From the NCBI GenBank assembly GCA_951406725.2, contig OX597814.1:73532001-73596000 (forward strand): DNA of 64,000 nt, written 5' to 3'. A program made the translations under genes and the position numbers. The DNA is from Octopus vulgaris. Lineage: Eukaryota. Position 1 is the first letter of the stretch; the number at the start of each line of letters is the position of its first letter. The notes beneath the pieces were generated by a model. The model had not been told where the DNA came from. It did not search any database and saw nothing but the letters and a program-made list of their open reading frames with translations. Of the stretch, positions 23,771-60,694 are shown piece after piece.

Positions 23771-24910
<1,140 letters not shown>

Positions 24911-25941
24911 TGTAACAATGCACTTATTTCCACGACAGGAAATTATCTTCGCACAAGCTTCTGGCTCAATCCACCTACACTCCAACCTAGAGGAAATACA
25001 TATTTTACCATATCGCAATATTTCTGCTTCTTAAGATGTATCTTTTACCTTATTGTTATTTTACTATGTAGTTATGTTAACACATACATATTTCACTTTG
25101 AGTATTTCTTACGAAGCGTATCTTGCCATATGTATGTTCTTCCATGTTCATATCAAAACATACCTGTATGGTACCATGTAGCTATTTTAACATACGGAAG
25201 AATAATAAACTTGGCACAAACTTCACTGTATCATGCAACATATTTTGCAGTGTCTACATTGGTATCCTCCAGCTTTCAGTTCAATTTTTGCCGATGTCGA
25301 CTTTTGGATTCTATATTTAGAGTTCACTGAAATTAATTATACTAATAAATTTGATGAATTCAAGTGATTCTATCTAATCGGATGTAAATCACTGTTTATA
25401 ATTATTTTACCAGAGTAGCTTGGTAGTAAATATCCGTTTATGCATATATTATTATGTAGTATCATTATCGTGAATGTATCAAAGTATAAGAATATATTTC
25501 GATGCATAATTAAGATTGCAGAACGAATTGGAATAATTTAAAATCTATAGCCATTTTCAATAAACATAATTTTTTAATCTCGTGTAAAGACAGCGAAAAA
25601 AGTGTTTTCACTATTGGTTTAATGTCTCTGTAGAAAGAAAAAAAAATAGCATAAATCGGACTGGTCTCCGTTACACTTTTAGCGTAGGAATAATGCTCGT
25701 GTTTTGACCAGAGAGAGAGTAGTAGCTTTAACAATTTATATTGTATACAAACTCAGACTCAGACAAATTGATCAATCTAATTTGCATGCCCTGGCTAAAA
25801 GACAGATATTCTTTTTTTTTAATAAAGATCTCACAAAATTAGAAACGTGTTAGATCGATCATTTATTTTCTACTCACGGCTAGAAAAAACCCACTTGTAT
25901 AACAATTTCAATACTTTTCCCAGTTTGACGGAAGTTGGATG

Positions 25942-50231: not shown

Positions 50232-51830
50232 TCAAGGAATTTTGCGGGAATCATGGGACGGAGTCGAAGAAGTTTGTTCATGTATTACTTCCGGTTCATT
50301 ATTTTGTGGGATTCCATAATAAAGAAGAGCTTCTTCGAAGCGTCTTTGTTTAGAGTTTCGATTTTTACACCAAGACCTAAATGCTTTACGGAAGTCACTG
50401 TTGCAGAGACCATAAAGGAAAGGATTGATGGCAGAGTTGGTGGCGAGAACCCAATAACTTATTGTCATAGCAAGAGACGGTATATACCAACTCCCGTAGG
50501 CAGATCTCAGAATGCTGCACACGGTGTATGGTGTCCAACAAAGTGTGAAAACTAGTACAAGAAAGCCCAGCGAGCAGGCAGCTTTCTTGTCCTGTTTGAC
50601 GAACATGTCTTTAACCAAATCATCACTTTGACGGCGCAGAGCCAAACCACTACGGCTACCGGAGCTGGAGGAACCGCTACTGCTGCTGCTGCTATTACTA
50701 CTGGTGCTTCCACCCTTGGTTAACCCAATAATAGAGTATCGCTTCTGTTTTGTAACAGGCATCATCATTCCAGTAGCATCGAAAGAAACATGTCTCTTAT
50801 GTTGAATGATTCGAGCATATTGTGCGAATGCTGAGGTATTCGATACATAGTGACTTAGTGGATTTCGTCTCGTTGATAAAGGACCCACAAAAGAGTTTCT
50901 TTTTTCATCACATATTAACATACCACCAACATTGCTTCCTTTCCGATGAATATTTGGTAGCATGTTGTCAAGAAACTCTTCCAGCTGCCCCATAGTATCC
51001 GATTCTGAGGATGATTTTCGGTAATTGAGGAAGAAAGTGTCCGATGTGCTTAGAGATCGTCGAATTTTCATTCCTTTCCGCTGACTAATCTTAAAATAAA
51101 TACTAGCGTTAATTATCCACAAAGCTAGTAACGGTAACAAATATAAGATAATAGAAGTCAACGCAATGAAGATTAGATTATTTTCAAATGGGGCATGGCA
51201 AGTCACTTGGGTACTATCAATGGAGATTACAGGTTGTGAAGGTGTAGTTTCAGAAGCAATTGGTCCAACGGTAGATGATAATATAGAAAACAATGTTTTT
51301 GGTGTGACAACTACTTGGTTTTTACTATGGTCGACATCATTCCATCCAAGTGTTGGTGGAGCATAAATAGCAAAGCTAAGTCCCCAGCTGAACAAAACAG
51401 ACCAGAGAGCAAGTTTTCTGCTTTGACGGACTCGATAGGAAAATGGGTGGTTTATAGACCACCATCGATCTACAGATATCAGCATGATACTAAGTAGAGA
51501 GATATAGAACAATGAATATCGAAACATGAGGAACACCCTGCAGAAAGGCCCTTGTATTGACCATAATCTTCCTCCTAGTTCTTCAAGTATGTAAACAGGC
51601 ATCGTACATCCAATGAGAAAGTCAGCAAATGCAAGGCTGACAATGAAAATGTTCTTACATTTCCGAAGTTGTTTGTAGCGAATAAACATTATAGTGACCA
51701 GTCCGTTACCAATAAGTGTAATTAAAGTTAGAGTAATGACTGGTAATACTTTTAGATATTTCCAAAACTCCACGCTATCTCCACCGACAGGAGATGGTCC
51801 CATCAAAATATCTTTGGAAACATTTTCCAT
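50232..51830 (-). CDS. Class A (rhodopsin-like) GPCR, aminergic scaffold (histamine H3/H4- or muscarinic-like), 532 aa, intronless CDS
   Basis: Intact ORF; GN (TM1), SLAFAD (TM2), C3.25, ISVDRW, W4.50, LLP (TM5), long Ser-rich ICL3, CWTPY (TM6), NSAINPFLY (TM7), helix 8 DFRKAF. Confidence 0.95.
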   Translation of the reverse strand: MENVSKDILMGPSPVGGDSVEFWKYLKVLPVITLTLITLIGNGLVTIMFIRYKQLRKCKNIFIVSLAFADFLIGCTMPVYILEELGGRLWSIQGPFCRVFLMFRYSLFYISLLSIMLISVDRWWSINHPFSYRVRQSRKLALWSVLFSWGLSFAIYAPPTLGWNDVDHSKNQVVVTPKTLFSILSSTVGPIASETTPSQPVISIDSTQVTCHAPFENNLIFIALTSIILYLLPLLALWIINASIYFKISQRKGMKIRRSLSTSDTFFLNYRKSSSESDTMGQLEEFLDNMLPNIHRKGSNVGGMLICDEKRNSFVGPLSTRRNPLSHYVSNTSAFAQYARIIQHKRHVSFDATGMMMPVTKQKRYSIIGLTKGGSTSSNSSSSSSGSSSSGSRSGLALRRQSDDLVKDMFVKQDKKAACSLGFLVLVFTLCWTPYTVCSILRSAYGSWYIPSLAMTISYWVLATNSAINPFLYGLCNSDFRKAFRSWCKNRNSKQRRFEEALLYYGIPQNNEPEVIHEQTSSTPSHDSRKIP

Positions 51831-52285
51831 GTTTTGTAAAATATGTAAGAAAGCTCAAAATAAAATATATGTAATTTAAAATAGAATTGGAAAGTCAAAA
51901 ATAGTGAAAAAATTAATTCACACATTCATGGGCACATGAAAACAAAAACAAGTCAAAACAGAGTGTTTAAACTGAAAACCTCCGCTTGATGACAGCGCAC
52001 TTGGCTCGTCTCTGAGTTTTCTAATCATTCCAGGTAAAATCCAAAGAAGTACCGTCCTGTTTTAGAGTCAAAGACAAAAACATAACAAAAGGAAAGAAAT
52101 CGAAGGTTGTCTGAGTTGTTCAAAATATTTCAACATATTTCGTTTAGTAATAGTTCTTTAGAATTCATTTCATGTAGTGTCACTTCCAATATCTCGAATG
52201 GTAACACGAATAGTCGTCCTGTGTAAAGTTTTCAGATTTCAGAAAATATTAATTTCCACCGTTGAATAATCTTCCTCTTCGTTTT

Positions 52286-53190
52286 CTGTAAATAAATTGC
52301 AATGTGCGAGAAATGAATATTTGTCTGTATAAATATATGAATTGGTAGATAAATATAGAAATAAATGTATATTTTGTAAAAAAAAATCGATGATTTTTTT
52401 TCTGTTGAAATGTCATTAAAATGTTCATGAAGTGTATGTATATTCTGATATGCTATCTCTTAGACTGACTGAAGAGACATGTGTTCATTACAGAATATAA
52501 ATATTAAATGGCAGCTATACTGATTAGGTGTATAAATATATACGCTTAGTACAATACCATATCCTGTCAGTGTAATAAGTTTCCTACACTGATCTTGATG
52601 AAGCAACTACAACGGAGAATGTTGCCAGTCAAGTTTGCTGCAAAACTGAAGTTGCTCATTTGTTGATAGCAAGCTTGTACTATTTGTATTTCATCCTCTT
52701 TCCTTTAATTATTTGTGACTGCGCGTGTGAGTACGCGTGTGAGTGCGCATGTATAAGGGCGGTAATGTATGTGTTTGTGGGTGTATTTCTCTCTCTCCCA
52801 CTTTCTCTTTTGCATCTAATCTTCCTCTCCGCCTTACCACCTCACTTCCTGCTTTGGTTTCTGCTCGTCTGTCTTCATCTCTAACTGACTGATTCTCTCT
52901 CACTGAAAAACTAAAGGTGCTACTATATCAGTATGTGAAGAATGTGCCAGATGGTTGTAATATGTGAGGCAGACAAGAGCGTCGTTAAGTCTGTATATGG
53001 TGACCACATCAGCGTCTGCAGTTGGTGATGCCGCGTGTGGTAGTGGGTGGTTGTTGGGGGTTAGCAGAGGGGGTAGAAATAATAGAAGGGTTGAAAAAGA
53101 GTTAGAAATGAAATAAAAGTGTAACAAAATAAACAAGAAAAAAAGAACAGAATTAGAAAGATGAAAACAAGAAGAATCAAAATAACGTAC
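52286..53190 (-). other. Possible 5'-UTR intron of the GPCR
   Basis: Minus-strand donor-like CTG|GTACGT near 53190 and acceptor-like tttatttacag| near 52286; no transcript evidence. Confidence 0.3.
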
Positions 53191-53252
53191 CAGTTCCGAG
53201 TCGCTAATTTGTGTTGTGGAGAGAGAGAGGGAGAGAGAGAGGGGGGAAGGTA

Positions 53253-54847: not shown

Positions 54848-55436
54848 ATAATAAAGGGTGAAATTAATTAATTTAGAAATAATCATTAATTTCACCAAGC
54901 AGAGTTCGGCATGTAAAAGACCCATTCAAGGAAGGTTTAAGTAATACTAAGTAATTAAGGCTTCAGCAACGATTTGCCTCACCACACACTGGATTTAGAA
55001 ATACCAGTCAAAACGTTTTGGCTATTCTTTCTACTTAAAAGGGAGATCCCAGTAAAACCAAAGCACTTAAAAAACAAACGACGCAGGTAAAAGAGAAAGA
55101 AATGACGAAAATCATTCTATATTAAGTTACCTACGGACGCACGTTTCGGAATTAAGTAATTGCAGAGCATAAAAATTAAATAATTATAATCAGGTAAGAC
55201 ATAATTATTTAATTTTTATGCTCTGCAATGACTTAATTCCGAAACGTGCGTCCGTAGGTAACTTAATATAGAATGATTTTCGTCATTTCTTTCTCTTTAA
55301 CCTGAGTCGTTTGTTTTTTAAGTGCTTTGGTTTTACTGGGATCTCCCTTTTAAGTAGAAAGAATAGCCAAAACTTTTTGACTGCTATTTCTAAATTCGCT
55401 GTGTGGTGAGGCAAATCGTTGCTGAACCCTTAATTA

Positions 55437-55440
<4 letters not shown>
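54846..55440 (-). mobile_element. Fold-back non-coding element with degenerate long-helix-II hammerhead, in (TA)n
   Basis: IR arms 54948-55187 / 55201-55440, 13-nt spacer; minus strand CTTAC-CTGATTA-(~39 nt)-GAAA-CGTGCG-TC-CGTAGG. Confidence 0.7.
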
Positions 55441-55480
<40 letters not shown>

Positions 55481-55484
<4 letters not shown>

Positions 55485-56835
55485 ATCTCGGCACATATTC
55501 ACTTCCTGTCCCAGGTAGACATATTCCTTTACCTCCTCTATTTCATCACTGCTGATCACCATTCGACCTGTTGGTACGTTGTCTGACCGCATGAACTGCG
55601 TTTTCATGCGGTGCATCTTGAGACCTACTGCAGAGCTTTTGATGTCAAGATCCGTCAGCATGGTCTGAAGCTGATCCGTGGTTTCAGCGATGAGTACGAT
55701 GCCATCAGCGAAACGGTGGTGGGTGAGGAGCTCGCCATTGATGTTGACACCGCCTTGCCAGTCGATGCCTCTAATGATCTGTTCGAGACATGCGGTGAAA
55801 AGTTTTGGGGAGATCGTATCTCCTTGCTTTACTCCCTTCTCGACCGGCACACGTACGGGTGATGACAGTAGAGCTATGTCGGTGGTGCATCCGGAATTTG
55901 CCTCCCTGAGCAGTTGCACATATTGCGCCTCGACTCCTTGCCTCTGCAGCGAGTTCAGCACTGCGTTGGTTTCGACGCTATCGAAGGCCTTCTCATAGTC
56001 TACAAACGCAACGCAAAGAGGCAGCTTGTACTCATTCGCTCGCTCAAGCAGTTGTGTTAGAGTAAATATATGGCCCATCGTGCTGTAGTTATTCCGGAAG
56101 CCGGCTTGTTCCCTCGGTTGTTCGTCGAGATGACGTGATAACCTGTTCAGCATTATCTTTGTAAGCAGCTTGTACACGTGAGACAGCAGGCATATGGGTC
56201 GGTAGTTCTTCTTTTCCTCTGTGACCTTCAAGAGCTTCTCCATCCGGTATGCCTCAAAGTGAATATGTGCCGAGATATCGAAAAGGAGATCTCACAGAGA
56301 GTAAGGGCCGGATGGAAGGCGTTTAATGGCATAAGGAATGTGCTCAAGGGAAAGTTGGACAGGACCACCCGCGCCAACCTCATCAACAGTACAGTTCTAC
56401 CTGCAATGTTATATGGTAGTGAAACATGGGCTACTACAAAGAGAGAAGAGCAGAGACTGGTAATGGCTCAAAGAGCCATGGAAAGGTCAATGCTTGGTAT
56501 CTCGTTGAGAGAGCACATCAGTAGTGAGATTATCAGAAAGAAGTCCGGCGTGAGGGATGTCATCGCAGAGTATACACACAGCAAGTTTAGATGAGCTGGA
56601 CACGTCGCCCGGCTCACCGATAATGGGTGGATCCGCGCAGTTGTCGAGTGGTACCCGCGCGAGCGGAAATGACCACCCAGAAGGCCTCCACGACGGTGGA
56701 GTTACGATTTCAGGAGGACGATTGGAATCACGTGGATGAGAAAGGCGCGATCCATAGAGGAGTGGACAGCGTGCTGTGACCAGCGGTGTAAAATGGACGC
56801 CTGACAGACTGGTTGGTCAAGGTGATCAAGGTGAT
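55481..56835 (+). mobile_element. 5'-truncated RTE-clade LINE with 5' inversion (55481-~56250 inverted)
   Basis: Minus ORF: NYRPICLLS, QAGFR, FVDYEKAFDSV, GVKQGDTISPKLF, RFADG, EYVYLG; plus part continues CRDIEKEISQRVRAGW...LYGSETW; tail (CAAGGTGAT)2. Confidence 0.93.
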
Positions 56836-59455: not shown

Positions 59456-59943
<488 letters not shown>

Positions 59944-60694
59944 ATGATTGAACTCCACGCATTCTCTTCCAAGAAATTTTATCTTAATTCTGATGCGCCC
60001 TCTTTACGATCTTTTTACCCTTCCATTTTCTCTCTTTCTCTCTCTTATTCTTTTACTTTCTCTTCTTCCACTATTCTCTCCTATTACTCTGTCACTTTCT
60101 CTCTCTCTCACTCCTCCTCCGTTGCTCACGTGGCTCCCACGTGACCATCGGCCATCTTTCTTTCCTCCTCTCCGTTGTACCCGGAACAAGGAAGACGTGT
60201 TCTTGCTTGTCTCCTGTCCTAGATTGATTTACGCGTTCGCCACTACAACCTCGTTTAGGCTTAGTAGCCCTTCCTGTTTGTTTACACTGTCCTATTTGTT
60301 TTACATATTTTGACCCTCCGCAAAATCCCCAATTTACTTTGCTAAATGATCGAAATACGAGACTAGAGAAACAACCAACAACTGATGAAGGGTTGTTTTT
60401 TATGTTGTTTGTTTTGTTTTCCATTTGTGTCTTTCGTTGTTCGAAAGAATAGTTCATGTTCCATGAACTCGTGCTTCATACTTTTTGTTGTCCACGTTTC
60501 CTGATGCGCTATGCCCACATATGCATATATATATATATACGTATAGATGTAAGTATGTACATATACGTATGTATATGTATATATATATGCATATATATAT
60601 TATTTACATTATTACATGATTGAACACCACGCATCCTCTTTCAAGTATGTTTTATCTATCTATCTATCTATGTCTCTCCCTCTCTATATATATG

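Follow-up and report, generated by a model that had tools for sequence, protein, structure and literature searches.

What does a receptor of the amine branch sense if the acid that should hold the amine has been replaced by a base? This question arises from a gene in a stretch of 64,000 nucleotides of the Octopus vulgaris genome, which we call the window (contig OX597814.1 of assembly GCA_951406725.2, positions 73,532,001 to 73,596,000 of the forward strand). The gene encodes a class A G protein-coupled receptor (GPCR) with arginine at position 3.32. Nearly all amine receptors use Asp3.32 as their anchor. Judging by its place in the receptor tree, the octopus protein belongs to a family with Arg3.32 that is an old paralogue of the histamine H3-type receptors. 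We see about an even chance that this orphan sister of H3 in molluscs uses its conserved Arg3.32 to anchor a small acid or zwitterion by its negative group.

The receptor is encoded by an unbroken open frame of 532 amino acids plus a stop codon (window 51830..50232, minus strand), and it matches Pfam's 7tm_1 with 156.7 bits (the cut-off is 30.5). In the AlphaFold2 model, seven helices are confident and the third loop is disordered, and the best fold match is human H3R (7f61). When the protein is aligned to human H3R with HMMER, R104 falls on Asp3.32 and A463 falls on Trp7.43, as had been proposed in an earlier, sequence-only reading of the gene. The alignment is gapless over both transmembrane helix 3 (TM3) and TM7, and C97 (3.25) to R122 (3.50) spans 26 residues, as in canonical amine receptors. 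(The earlier reading had also aligned TM3 without gaps.) This rules out a misalignment of TM3 or TM7. The activation motifs were said to be intact, and D70 (2.50), DRW, CWTP, and NPFLY are indeed all present. Other marks of class A receptors are present as well (C97 at 3.25, C211 in loop 2, W149 at 4.50, and P233 at 5.50). The earlier reading missed that TM2 lacks one residue relative to H3R, which shifts the TM2 numbering. The coding sequence and its main features are:

50232..51830, minus strand: coding sequence, a single exon for a class A GPCR of 532 amino acids (open frame, Pfam, and fold model)
51597..51599, minus strand: Pro78 at 2.58, which marks the family-wide deletion of one residue in TM2 (row counts)
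51582..51584, minus strand: Glu83 at the top of TM2, which aligns with Tyr2.64 of H3R; a candidate counter-ion for Arg104 (putative contact)
51519..51521, minus strand: Arg104 at 3.32, where the amine-binding Asp stands (alignment, row counts, and rate)
51462..51470, minus strand: DRW (3.49-3.51), then Trp, and Pro-Phe in loop 2
51144..51146, minus strand: Leu229 at 5.46 (Glu in H3/H4 and in the chiton, bivalve, limpet, and abalone orthologues)
50529..50540, minus strand: CWTP (6.47-6.50)
50442..50444, minus strand: Ala463 at 7.43, which replaces the Trp of H3/H4 (alignment and row counts)
50412..50426, minus strand: NPFLY (7.49-7.53)
50319..50339, minus strand: FEEALLY, a short C-tail motif, seen by eye in many mollusc members (uncounted)

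The C-tail motif is moderately amphipathic (its moment is up to 0.52, versus 0.82 for helix 8).

Arg3.32 is neither a sequence error nor a private change. Both are ruled out by homologues with Arg3.32 and by the uniform letters of the R104 codon: transcript contigs (presumed RNA) from 4 runs in 4 studies cover the coding sequence, and no alternative letter is listed in them at 51519-51521. The same residues stand at 3.32 and 7.43 in O. bimaculoides and Argonauta hians. Of the 31 sequences that include TM3 among the 35 best homologues, 30 have Arg3.32, which speaks against chance. A search over 1.84 billion representatives brought in further members of the family and outgroups. (For the later counts, thinning at 90% identity or more reduced the 246 rows to 216.) In the mollusc clade, 38 less-redundant rows have Arg (35), Leu (2), or Lys (1) at 3.32, versus Asp in 30/31 H3-type rows. 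An aromatic residue (Trp, Tyr, or Phe) at 7.43 is found in 0/38 rows of the Arg clade versus 31/31 H3-type rows. The relative rate of R104 is 0.20, similar to that of D2.50 (0.22) and D3.49 (0.21). The sequence-only reading had named Asp3.32 in orthologues as what would speak against it; we looked for it across the homologues and did not see it.

The family also shares a TM2 that is one residue shorter, DRW-W, and Pro-Phe in loop 2. Of the 41 family rows with D2.50 and a Pro in TM2, 38 have the Pro at 2.58; it is at 2.59 in 23/31 H3-type rows and 93/113 other rows. The family includes a chiton (Liolophura), bivalves, gastropods, and octopods; named members come from Argonauta, Patella, Lottia, Haliotis, Batillaria, Nucella, Babylonia, Pomacea, Physella, Biomphalaria, Lymnaea, Argopecten, and Saccostrea, and also Aplysia and Sinanodonta. 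Thus, the arginine that the earlier reading saw is real, but it is not specific to octopus: it marks a mollusc-wide subfamily that is sister to the H3/H4-type receptors. The orthologue from O. bimaculoides (XP_014773790.1) shares a 90% cluster with the octopus GPCR and has the RefSeq name "histamine H3 receptor". The orthologue from Argonauta is 89% identical and differs at 10/193 TM residues versus 51/339 other residues, a pattern that indicates constraint on the protein. Searching with an alignment from the annelid side gave 6 matches and no new family member among the part of the candidates that was scored, so the family's range outside molluscs rests on Owenia and four other rows (see below). 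The Atlas search added only generic clusters of amine receptors.

Some relatives have unusual residues. Several paralogues per gastropod genome have different pockets (Babylonia P0013/P0021 and Nucella P0009/P0020). Among land snails, the paralogues P0108, P0109, and P0241 (the Bradybaena similaris cluster) have Leu3.32 and Lys5.46, which shifts the positive charge from TM3 to TM5. P0130, P0146, and P0173 form a very long-branched subgroup on the gastropod side, in which D2.50 is lost (Gly) and Arg3.32 is kept. On the bivalve side, P0029, P0033, and P0115 have Arg instead of Trp6.48. One relative with Lys3.32 is in two pieces (P0075 and P0003, 65-72% identity), with a frame break after TM5 that reflects either an assembly error or decay.

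To place the family among the amine receptors, we built a tree with IQ-TREE from 242 TM columns of 60 selected rows, leaving out positions 3.32, 5.46, 7.43, and 83. (A first tree had been built without fragments that have 25% gaps or more, which removed 15/245 rows.) The H1/H3/H4/muscarinic group, with 52 rows including the octopus family, separates from 8 other amine receptors with support of 100/99. Within it, the Arg clade has support of 100/99; the chiton branches first, then the bivalves, and then the octopods and gastropods. A sister group of five rows, in which 3.32 is Glu, Ser, Phe, or Lys, is united with the Arg clade on a long stem (100/99), and one of the five rows is from the annelid Owenia, which has a canonical H3-type gene too. 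Together, the Arg clade and this group are sister to the H3-type receptors at 99/95. The H3-type rows form their own clade (96/85), with oyster, Gigantopelta, Lineus, amphioxus, Saccoglossus, newt, and Owenia, and the octopus family lies outside it. Muscarinic and H1-type receptors are placed outside the grouping of the family with the H3-type receptors. A muscarinic origin, with the family in one clade with types A and B, was rejected (approximately unbiased test, p = 0.0166). When changes are mapped to branches, Arg3.32 was gained once, on the mollusc stem, and the aromatic residue at 7.43 was lost on the same branch. The earlier call of a functional orphan receptor from the aminergic branch agrees with the intact frame and motifs and with this position inside the H1/H3/H4/muscarinic group. 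To judge from its sequence, the octopus GPCR is an amine-branch receptor by descent, and by its defining residues it is not a histamine or muscarinic receptor.

We then considered the charge of the pocket, using 24 sites that were chosen from papers on H3/H4 structures and from general knowledge. The sequence-only reading described a charge-reversed pocket. This is correct for 3.32 only; over the 24 sites, the octopus protein has a net charge of 0, so the pocket is neutralised rather than reversed. The mean net charge is -0.2 for the Arg clade and -2.9 for the H3-type receptors, whose acids at 3.32 and 7.36 are absent in the family. A Lys or Arg occupies at least one of the 24 sites in 39/39 family rows, versus 4/32 H3-type rows and 2/17 muscarinic-A rows. 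Rows without Arg3.32 have another basic residue, at 5.46, 6.51, or 6.55. This shifting of the basic residue within the pocket fits a need for a cation rather than one fixed salt bridge.

At other pocket positions, the octopods differ from most of the family's core. (The 17 core orthologues exclude caenogastropods, heterobranchs, three long-branched rows on the bivalve side, and one unplaced row on the gastropod side.) Glu5.46 is present in 14/14 core rows that are not from octopods (16/38 rows of the clade) versus Leu in 3/3 octopod rows; similarly, His4.57 is present in 13/14 of these core rows, and the three octopod rows have Tyr4.57. The octopus protein keeps Tyr3.33, Tyr6.51, Thr6.52, and an aromatic residue at 7.39, which gives R-Y-Y at 3.32-3.33-6.51 and Y-x3-A at 7.39-7.43.

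How might this pocket work? In H3 and H4, the ring of histamine is at Asp3.32, Phe7.39, and Trp7.43, and the ethylamine extends towards Glu5.46 (PMC10954740 and PMC11437213). In H4R, D3.32A, D3.32N, and W7.43A each abolish activation by histamine (PMC10954740); over H3 and H4, W7.43A lowers or abolishes activation (PMC10954740, PMC11437213). D3.32A abolishes activation in all four histamine receptors, and in H3/H4, Glu5.46 pairs with the primary amine (PMC11437213). In one structure of H4R, density next to Glu5.46 was interpreted as phosphate. Given its position in TM3, Arg3.32 probably faces the pocket, and the ring site of H3 would have been rebuilt around it into an anion site. In chitons, bivalves, limpets, and abalones, the kept Glu5.46 and His4.57 would suit an amino-alkyl anion; candidate types are beta-alanine, GABA, taurine, histidine, and imidazole acetate. 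(Molluscs are rich in taurine, beta-alanine, and isethionate.) In octopods these two sites are Leu5.46 and Tyr4.57, so an anionic group and a tail that is neutral or apolar would be enough for a ligand in octopus. Once bound, the ligand would switch the machinery of D2.50, DRW, CWxP, and NPxxY and act on a G protein (putative coupling), and loop 3 would be tuned by phosphorylation, with protein phosphatase 1 (PP1) predicted to dock on RHVSFD. A fuller version of this account, which we offer tentatively and think is rather doubtful, is that an early mollusc paralogue of H3 was rebuilt for an amino-alkyl anion (taurine, beta-alanine, or GABA), shifted to an amine-free anion in octopods, and has its own PP1-docking loop; it would serve an undescribed mollusc signal (a transmitter or a metabolite) and would be the last histamine-branch GPCR of octopus.

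Several observations weigh against an anion held by Arg3.32. The test for a basic residue in the pocket is not specific, as 14/14 H1-type rows pass it via Lys5.39, and vertebrate H1 binds histamine. Also, with a net pocket charge of 0, Glu83 or Glu5.46 could pair with the arginine and leave no free charge. (At position 83, at the top of TM2, 23 of 38 rows have Glu and 6 have Gln; Glu or Gln is present in 17/17 core orthologues.) Furthermore, a single shared ligand would be expected to hold the pocket sites better than we see. The rate over the 24 sites is 1.15 in the Arg clade, where 83% of random sets of TM sites are as slow or slower, versus 0.74 in the H3-type clade, where only 1.5% are (tree lengths of 16.6 and 16.5; paired test, p = 0.0014). 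Rates are low on the TM2-4 side of the pocket (0.73) and high on the side formed by extracellular loop 2 and TM5-7 (1.41, or 1.47 among the 17 core orthologues), a split that was picked after the rates were seen. The lack of conservation on the TM5-7 side leaves room for a receptor that works independently of a ligand. Such a reading is the main rival, and we consider it unlikely but worth taking seriously: Arg3.32 would itself replace the cation of histamine in the space left by Trp7.43 and pair with Glu83 or Glu5.46, which would fix the receptor's basal activity. Control of its output would lie with expression and with phosphorylation of loop 3 (via the kinase motifs and PP1 docking). Constitutively active orphan receptors do exist in the amine branch. 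An internal pair is consistent with the neutral pocket, with TM5-7 pocket sites that are faster than the average TM site, with loop 3 motifs that are better kept than the TM6-7 pocket sites, and with three changes on the same branch: Arg appeared at 3.32, the aromatic residue at 7.43 was lost, and Glu or Gln appeared at the top of TM2. Both rows with Leu3.32 also lack the Glu at the top of TM2. However, rows without Arg3.32 have a basic residue elsewhere, often with no acid beside it (P0108 and P0109 have Lys5.46), and in some paralogues the number of basic residues reaches four (P0023), more than a single internal pair would easily account for. Octopods have kept the arginine even though Glu5.46 was lost.

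Instead of anchoring an anion, the receptor might still bind an amine such as histamine, using another acid: Glu5.46 in most molluscs, and Glu83, Glu84, or Glu216 in octopus. The family's sister relationship to the H3/H4-type receptors and the residues that octopus keeps at 3.33, 6.51, 6.52, and 7.39 point this way, as does its being the only histamine-branch GPCR found in the octopus genome (among the scored candidates). There are precedents for amine receptors without Asp3.32, namely the clade III trace amine-associated receptors (TAARs) of fish (PMC4695389) and the SmGPRs of schistosomes (PMC3289605, PMC13642640). But these use Asn or an acid in TM5, while the octopus protein has a cation at 3.32 and has no acid in TM3 before 3.49, in TM5, or in the outer halves of TM6 and TM7. 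Moreover, oyster, a vent snail, and Owenia have canonical H3-type genes with Asp3.32, and Owenia has both kinds. We think that amine binding is improbable. We give still less credence to a sensor that varies by lineage or that binds a larger ligand (a lipid acid, a nucleotide, or the C-terminus of a peptide), with Arg3.32 as the sole common anchor and the rest of the pocket retuned in each lineage. Such a sensor would account for the fast TM6-7 pocket sites and for the gastropod paralogues with different pockets, and a small residue at 7.43 together with the TM2 deletion would open the TM2-TM7 side. Yet octopus has one full copy and its pocket is identical to that of Argonauta (0/24 sites changed, at 89% identity overall), so there is no fast tuning in octopods, and the N-terminus is short. 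Finally, a decaying gene or a sequence artefact is very hard to believe. The frame break that splits one close relative (P0075 and P0003, with Lys3.32) is of this kind, but the octopus gene has an open frame, intact motifs, a splice junction, the same residues as many other species, and a slow rate at R104, and these largely refute the idea. An anion held by Arg3.32 remains our preferred reading, in line with the anionic or non-amine ligand that the earlier reading had suggested.

The third loop carries three motifs of its own:

51048..51062, minus strand: RRSLS at the start of loop 3, a likely kinase site (motif counts)
50778..50795, minus strand: RHVSFD, an RVxF motif in the disordered loop 3, where PP1 is predicted to dock
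50619..50636, minus strand: RRQSDD, a basic-serine motif ahead of TM6

Loop 3 is disordered, yet it has conserved islands. RR[SN]xS is found in 30/36 family rows (2.3 were expected) and in 0/15 H3-type rows; RRSLS is probably a kinase site. An exact R[RKH]VSF is found in 10/36 family rows (0.05 were expected) and is missing from the other 26; it is found in 0/15 H3-type rows and 0/92 others. The carriers are all five rows of the sister group, the chiton, the limpet, the abalone, and octopus, but not the bivalves or most other gastropods. In general, phosphorylation of the serine in an RVxF motif blocks the docking of PP1. RVxF is the docking motif for PP1 (PMC3956607). When loop residues 332-366 were co-folded with PP1 (a stand-in from a metagenome contig), the score was 0.72, versus 0.02 for the best of 3 controls, with predicted contacts at residues 346-351 and 353. 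At least 52% of contacts are common to the runs, and the partner's pLDDT (predicted local distance difference test) is at least 47; in the receptor model, the RHVSF stretch, which fits the general pattern [RK]-x-V-x-F, has a pLDDT under 50. In calibration, the mark was reached by 51/78 solved and 2/108 mismatched microbial pairs and by 39/65 and 2/126 eukaryotic pairs, a set that excludes peptides and disordered chains, and the pass for PP1 may reflect likeness to solved complexes with RVxF. Loop 3 is predicted to dock PP1 via its RVxF motif. Besides two ordinary PP1 exons, the octopus genome has a divergent PP1-like exon on C4 (locus L024, 1501-1737).

We then asked if octopus has other receptors of the histamine branch. 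An exon-by-exon search of the octopus genome, in which part of the candidates were scored, found no H3- or H1-type gene with Asp3.32; such a search could miss a gene in many small exons. For two mollusc H3-type queries and one H1-type query, the best match in the genome was a muscarinic gene (29, 32, and 41% identity), and octopus has its own muscarinic genes of types A and B. None of 20 further octopus loci fell in the H3- or H1-type clade or had the residues of those receptors. Within the limits of the search, the octopus family member is apparently the sole histamine-branch GPCR in this genome. We also checked two exons for histidine decarboxylase (HDC): one scores alike for DDC and HDC, and the other scores best, weakly, for HDC. 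Histaminergic neurons are present in cuttlefish.

Outside the coding sequence, the gene's transcript has these parts:

51831..52285, minus strand: 5' untranslated part of the coding exon (transcript contigs and acceptor site)
52286..53190, minus strand: GT-AG intron of 905 bases in the 5' leader (donor GT at 53190, acceptor AG at 52287-52286)
53191..53204, minus strand: 3' end of an upstream non-coding exon, whose start was not found (the 13-letter contig end matches here)

Contigs from two studies end at 52286. One has a loose end of 13 letters at this position, which matches the window once, at 53191 (0 matches in 100 shuffles). This one junction in the 5' leader, seen in one assembled contig, is from a spliced transcript of the GPCR gene. 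Two synonymous differences in the gene come from one run.

The octopus genome has one full copy of the gene and a partial second copy. A 776-base copy of the front of the gene (window 51521-52296) is on another chromosome (locus L002, C6:79587926-79591243, at 1477-2310 of the locus), with 768/776 bases identical and with two exact direct repeats of 29 bases at its flanks. It covers codons 1-103 together with the leader portion of the coding exon and 11 intron bases, a content that suggests insertion from a DNA template and not a processed copy. Its frame soon meets a stop. Upstream of the GPCR gene, window 55434-56243 (minus strand) encodes a 269-amino-acid fragment of a reverse transcriptase (RVT_1, 107 bits), an ordinary piece of a retroelement. 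The open frames at window 24737-25330 and 59554-60144 (plus strand) are simple AT-rich repeats and do not look like genes.

In the literature that we could search, which does not cover most subscription journals, we found no description of the mollusc clade with Arg3.32, including in the accessible parts of PMC10244343, PMC5282848, PMC6408891, and 10.1101/2025.04.18.649542. Bivalves are reported to have a variable number of H3-like receptors (preprint 10.64898/2026.08.17.745212), and the supplements of that preprint and of PMC10244343 may list members of the family as H3-like. Current annotations call genes of this family histamine, muscarinic, tyramine, or serotonin receptors, so counts of amine receptors in molluscs and readings of expression atlases may be wrong. 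An opposite charge that is fixed at 3.32 across all of the sampled mollusc classes is a natural experiment in the change of ligand class, and it gives a short list of ligands that can be tested. If the PP1 motif is real, it would be a direct docking site for a phosphatase on a GPCR; PMC3956607 notes that the somatostatin receptors studied there are without an RVxF motif. The apparent absence of canonical histamine GPCRs in octopus raises a question for cephalopod neurobiology: if true, cephalopods would have to use histamine as a signal with no canonical histamine GPCR to receive it.

Among known systems, human H3R is the best sequence match of the octopus GPCR (E = 1.6e-36). Compared to H3/H4, octopus has Arg for Asp3.32 and Ala for Trp7.43, octopods have Leu for Glu5.46, and there is no Glu7.36. 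The H3/H4 signature is D3.32-Y/V3.33-Y6.51 with F7.39-x3-W7.43 (PMC11437213), versus R-Y-Y with Y-x3-A in the octopus protein. The family also differs from H3 in the TM2 with one residue less, DRWW, Pro-Phe in loop 2, its own loop 3 motifs, and its long stem. The muscarinic receptors are the next branch out and, like the family, they have a long third loop (several orthologues are automatically named muscarinic), but the family has no Asp3.32, no Asn6.52, and no Tyr7.43. The clade III TAARs of fish and the SmGPRs of schistosomes resemble the family in another way: they are in the amine branch, and, as in the octopus family, a whole clade has lost Asp3.32. This likeness implies no kinship, and these receptors stay amine receptors via Asp5.42 or with Asn3.32 (PMC4695389 for TAARs; PMC3289605 and PMC13642640 for SmGPRs). 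For binding an acid, there are two comparable receptors from other branches of class A, MrgD and HCA2, neither of which is among the 60 best PDB matches listed and whose arginines are at 3.30 or 3.36. MrgD binds beta-alanine with Arg3.30 and Asp5.37 (PMC9287403), and HCA2 binds carboxylates or hydroxycarboxylic acids with Arg3.36 (PMC10516952). They serve as a model only for how the octopus receptor might work: an arginine in TM3 binds the carboxylate, and in MrgD an acid in TM5 binds the amine.

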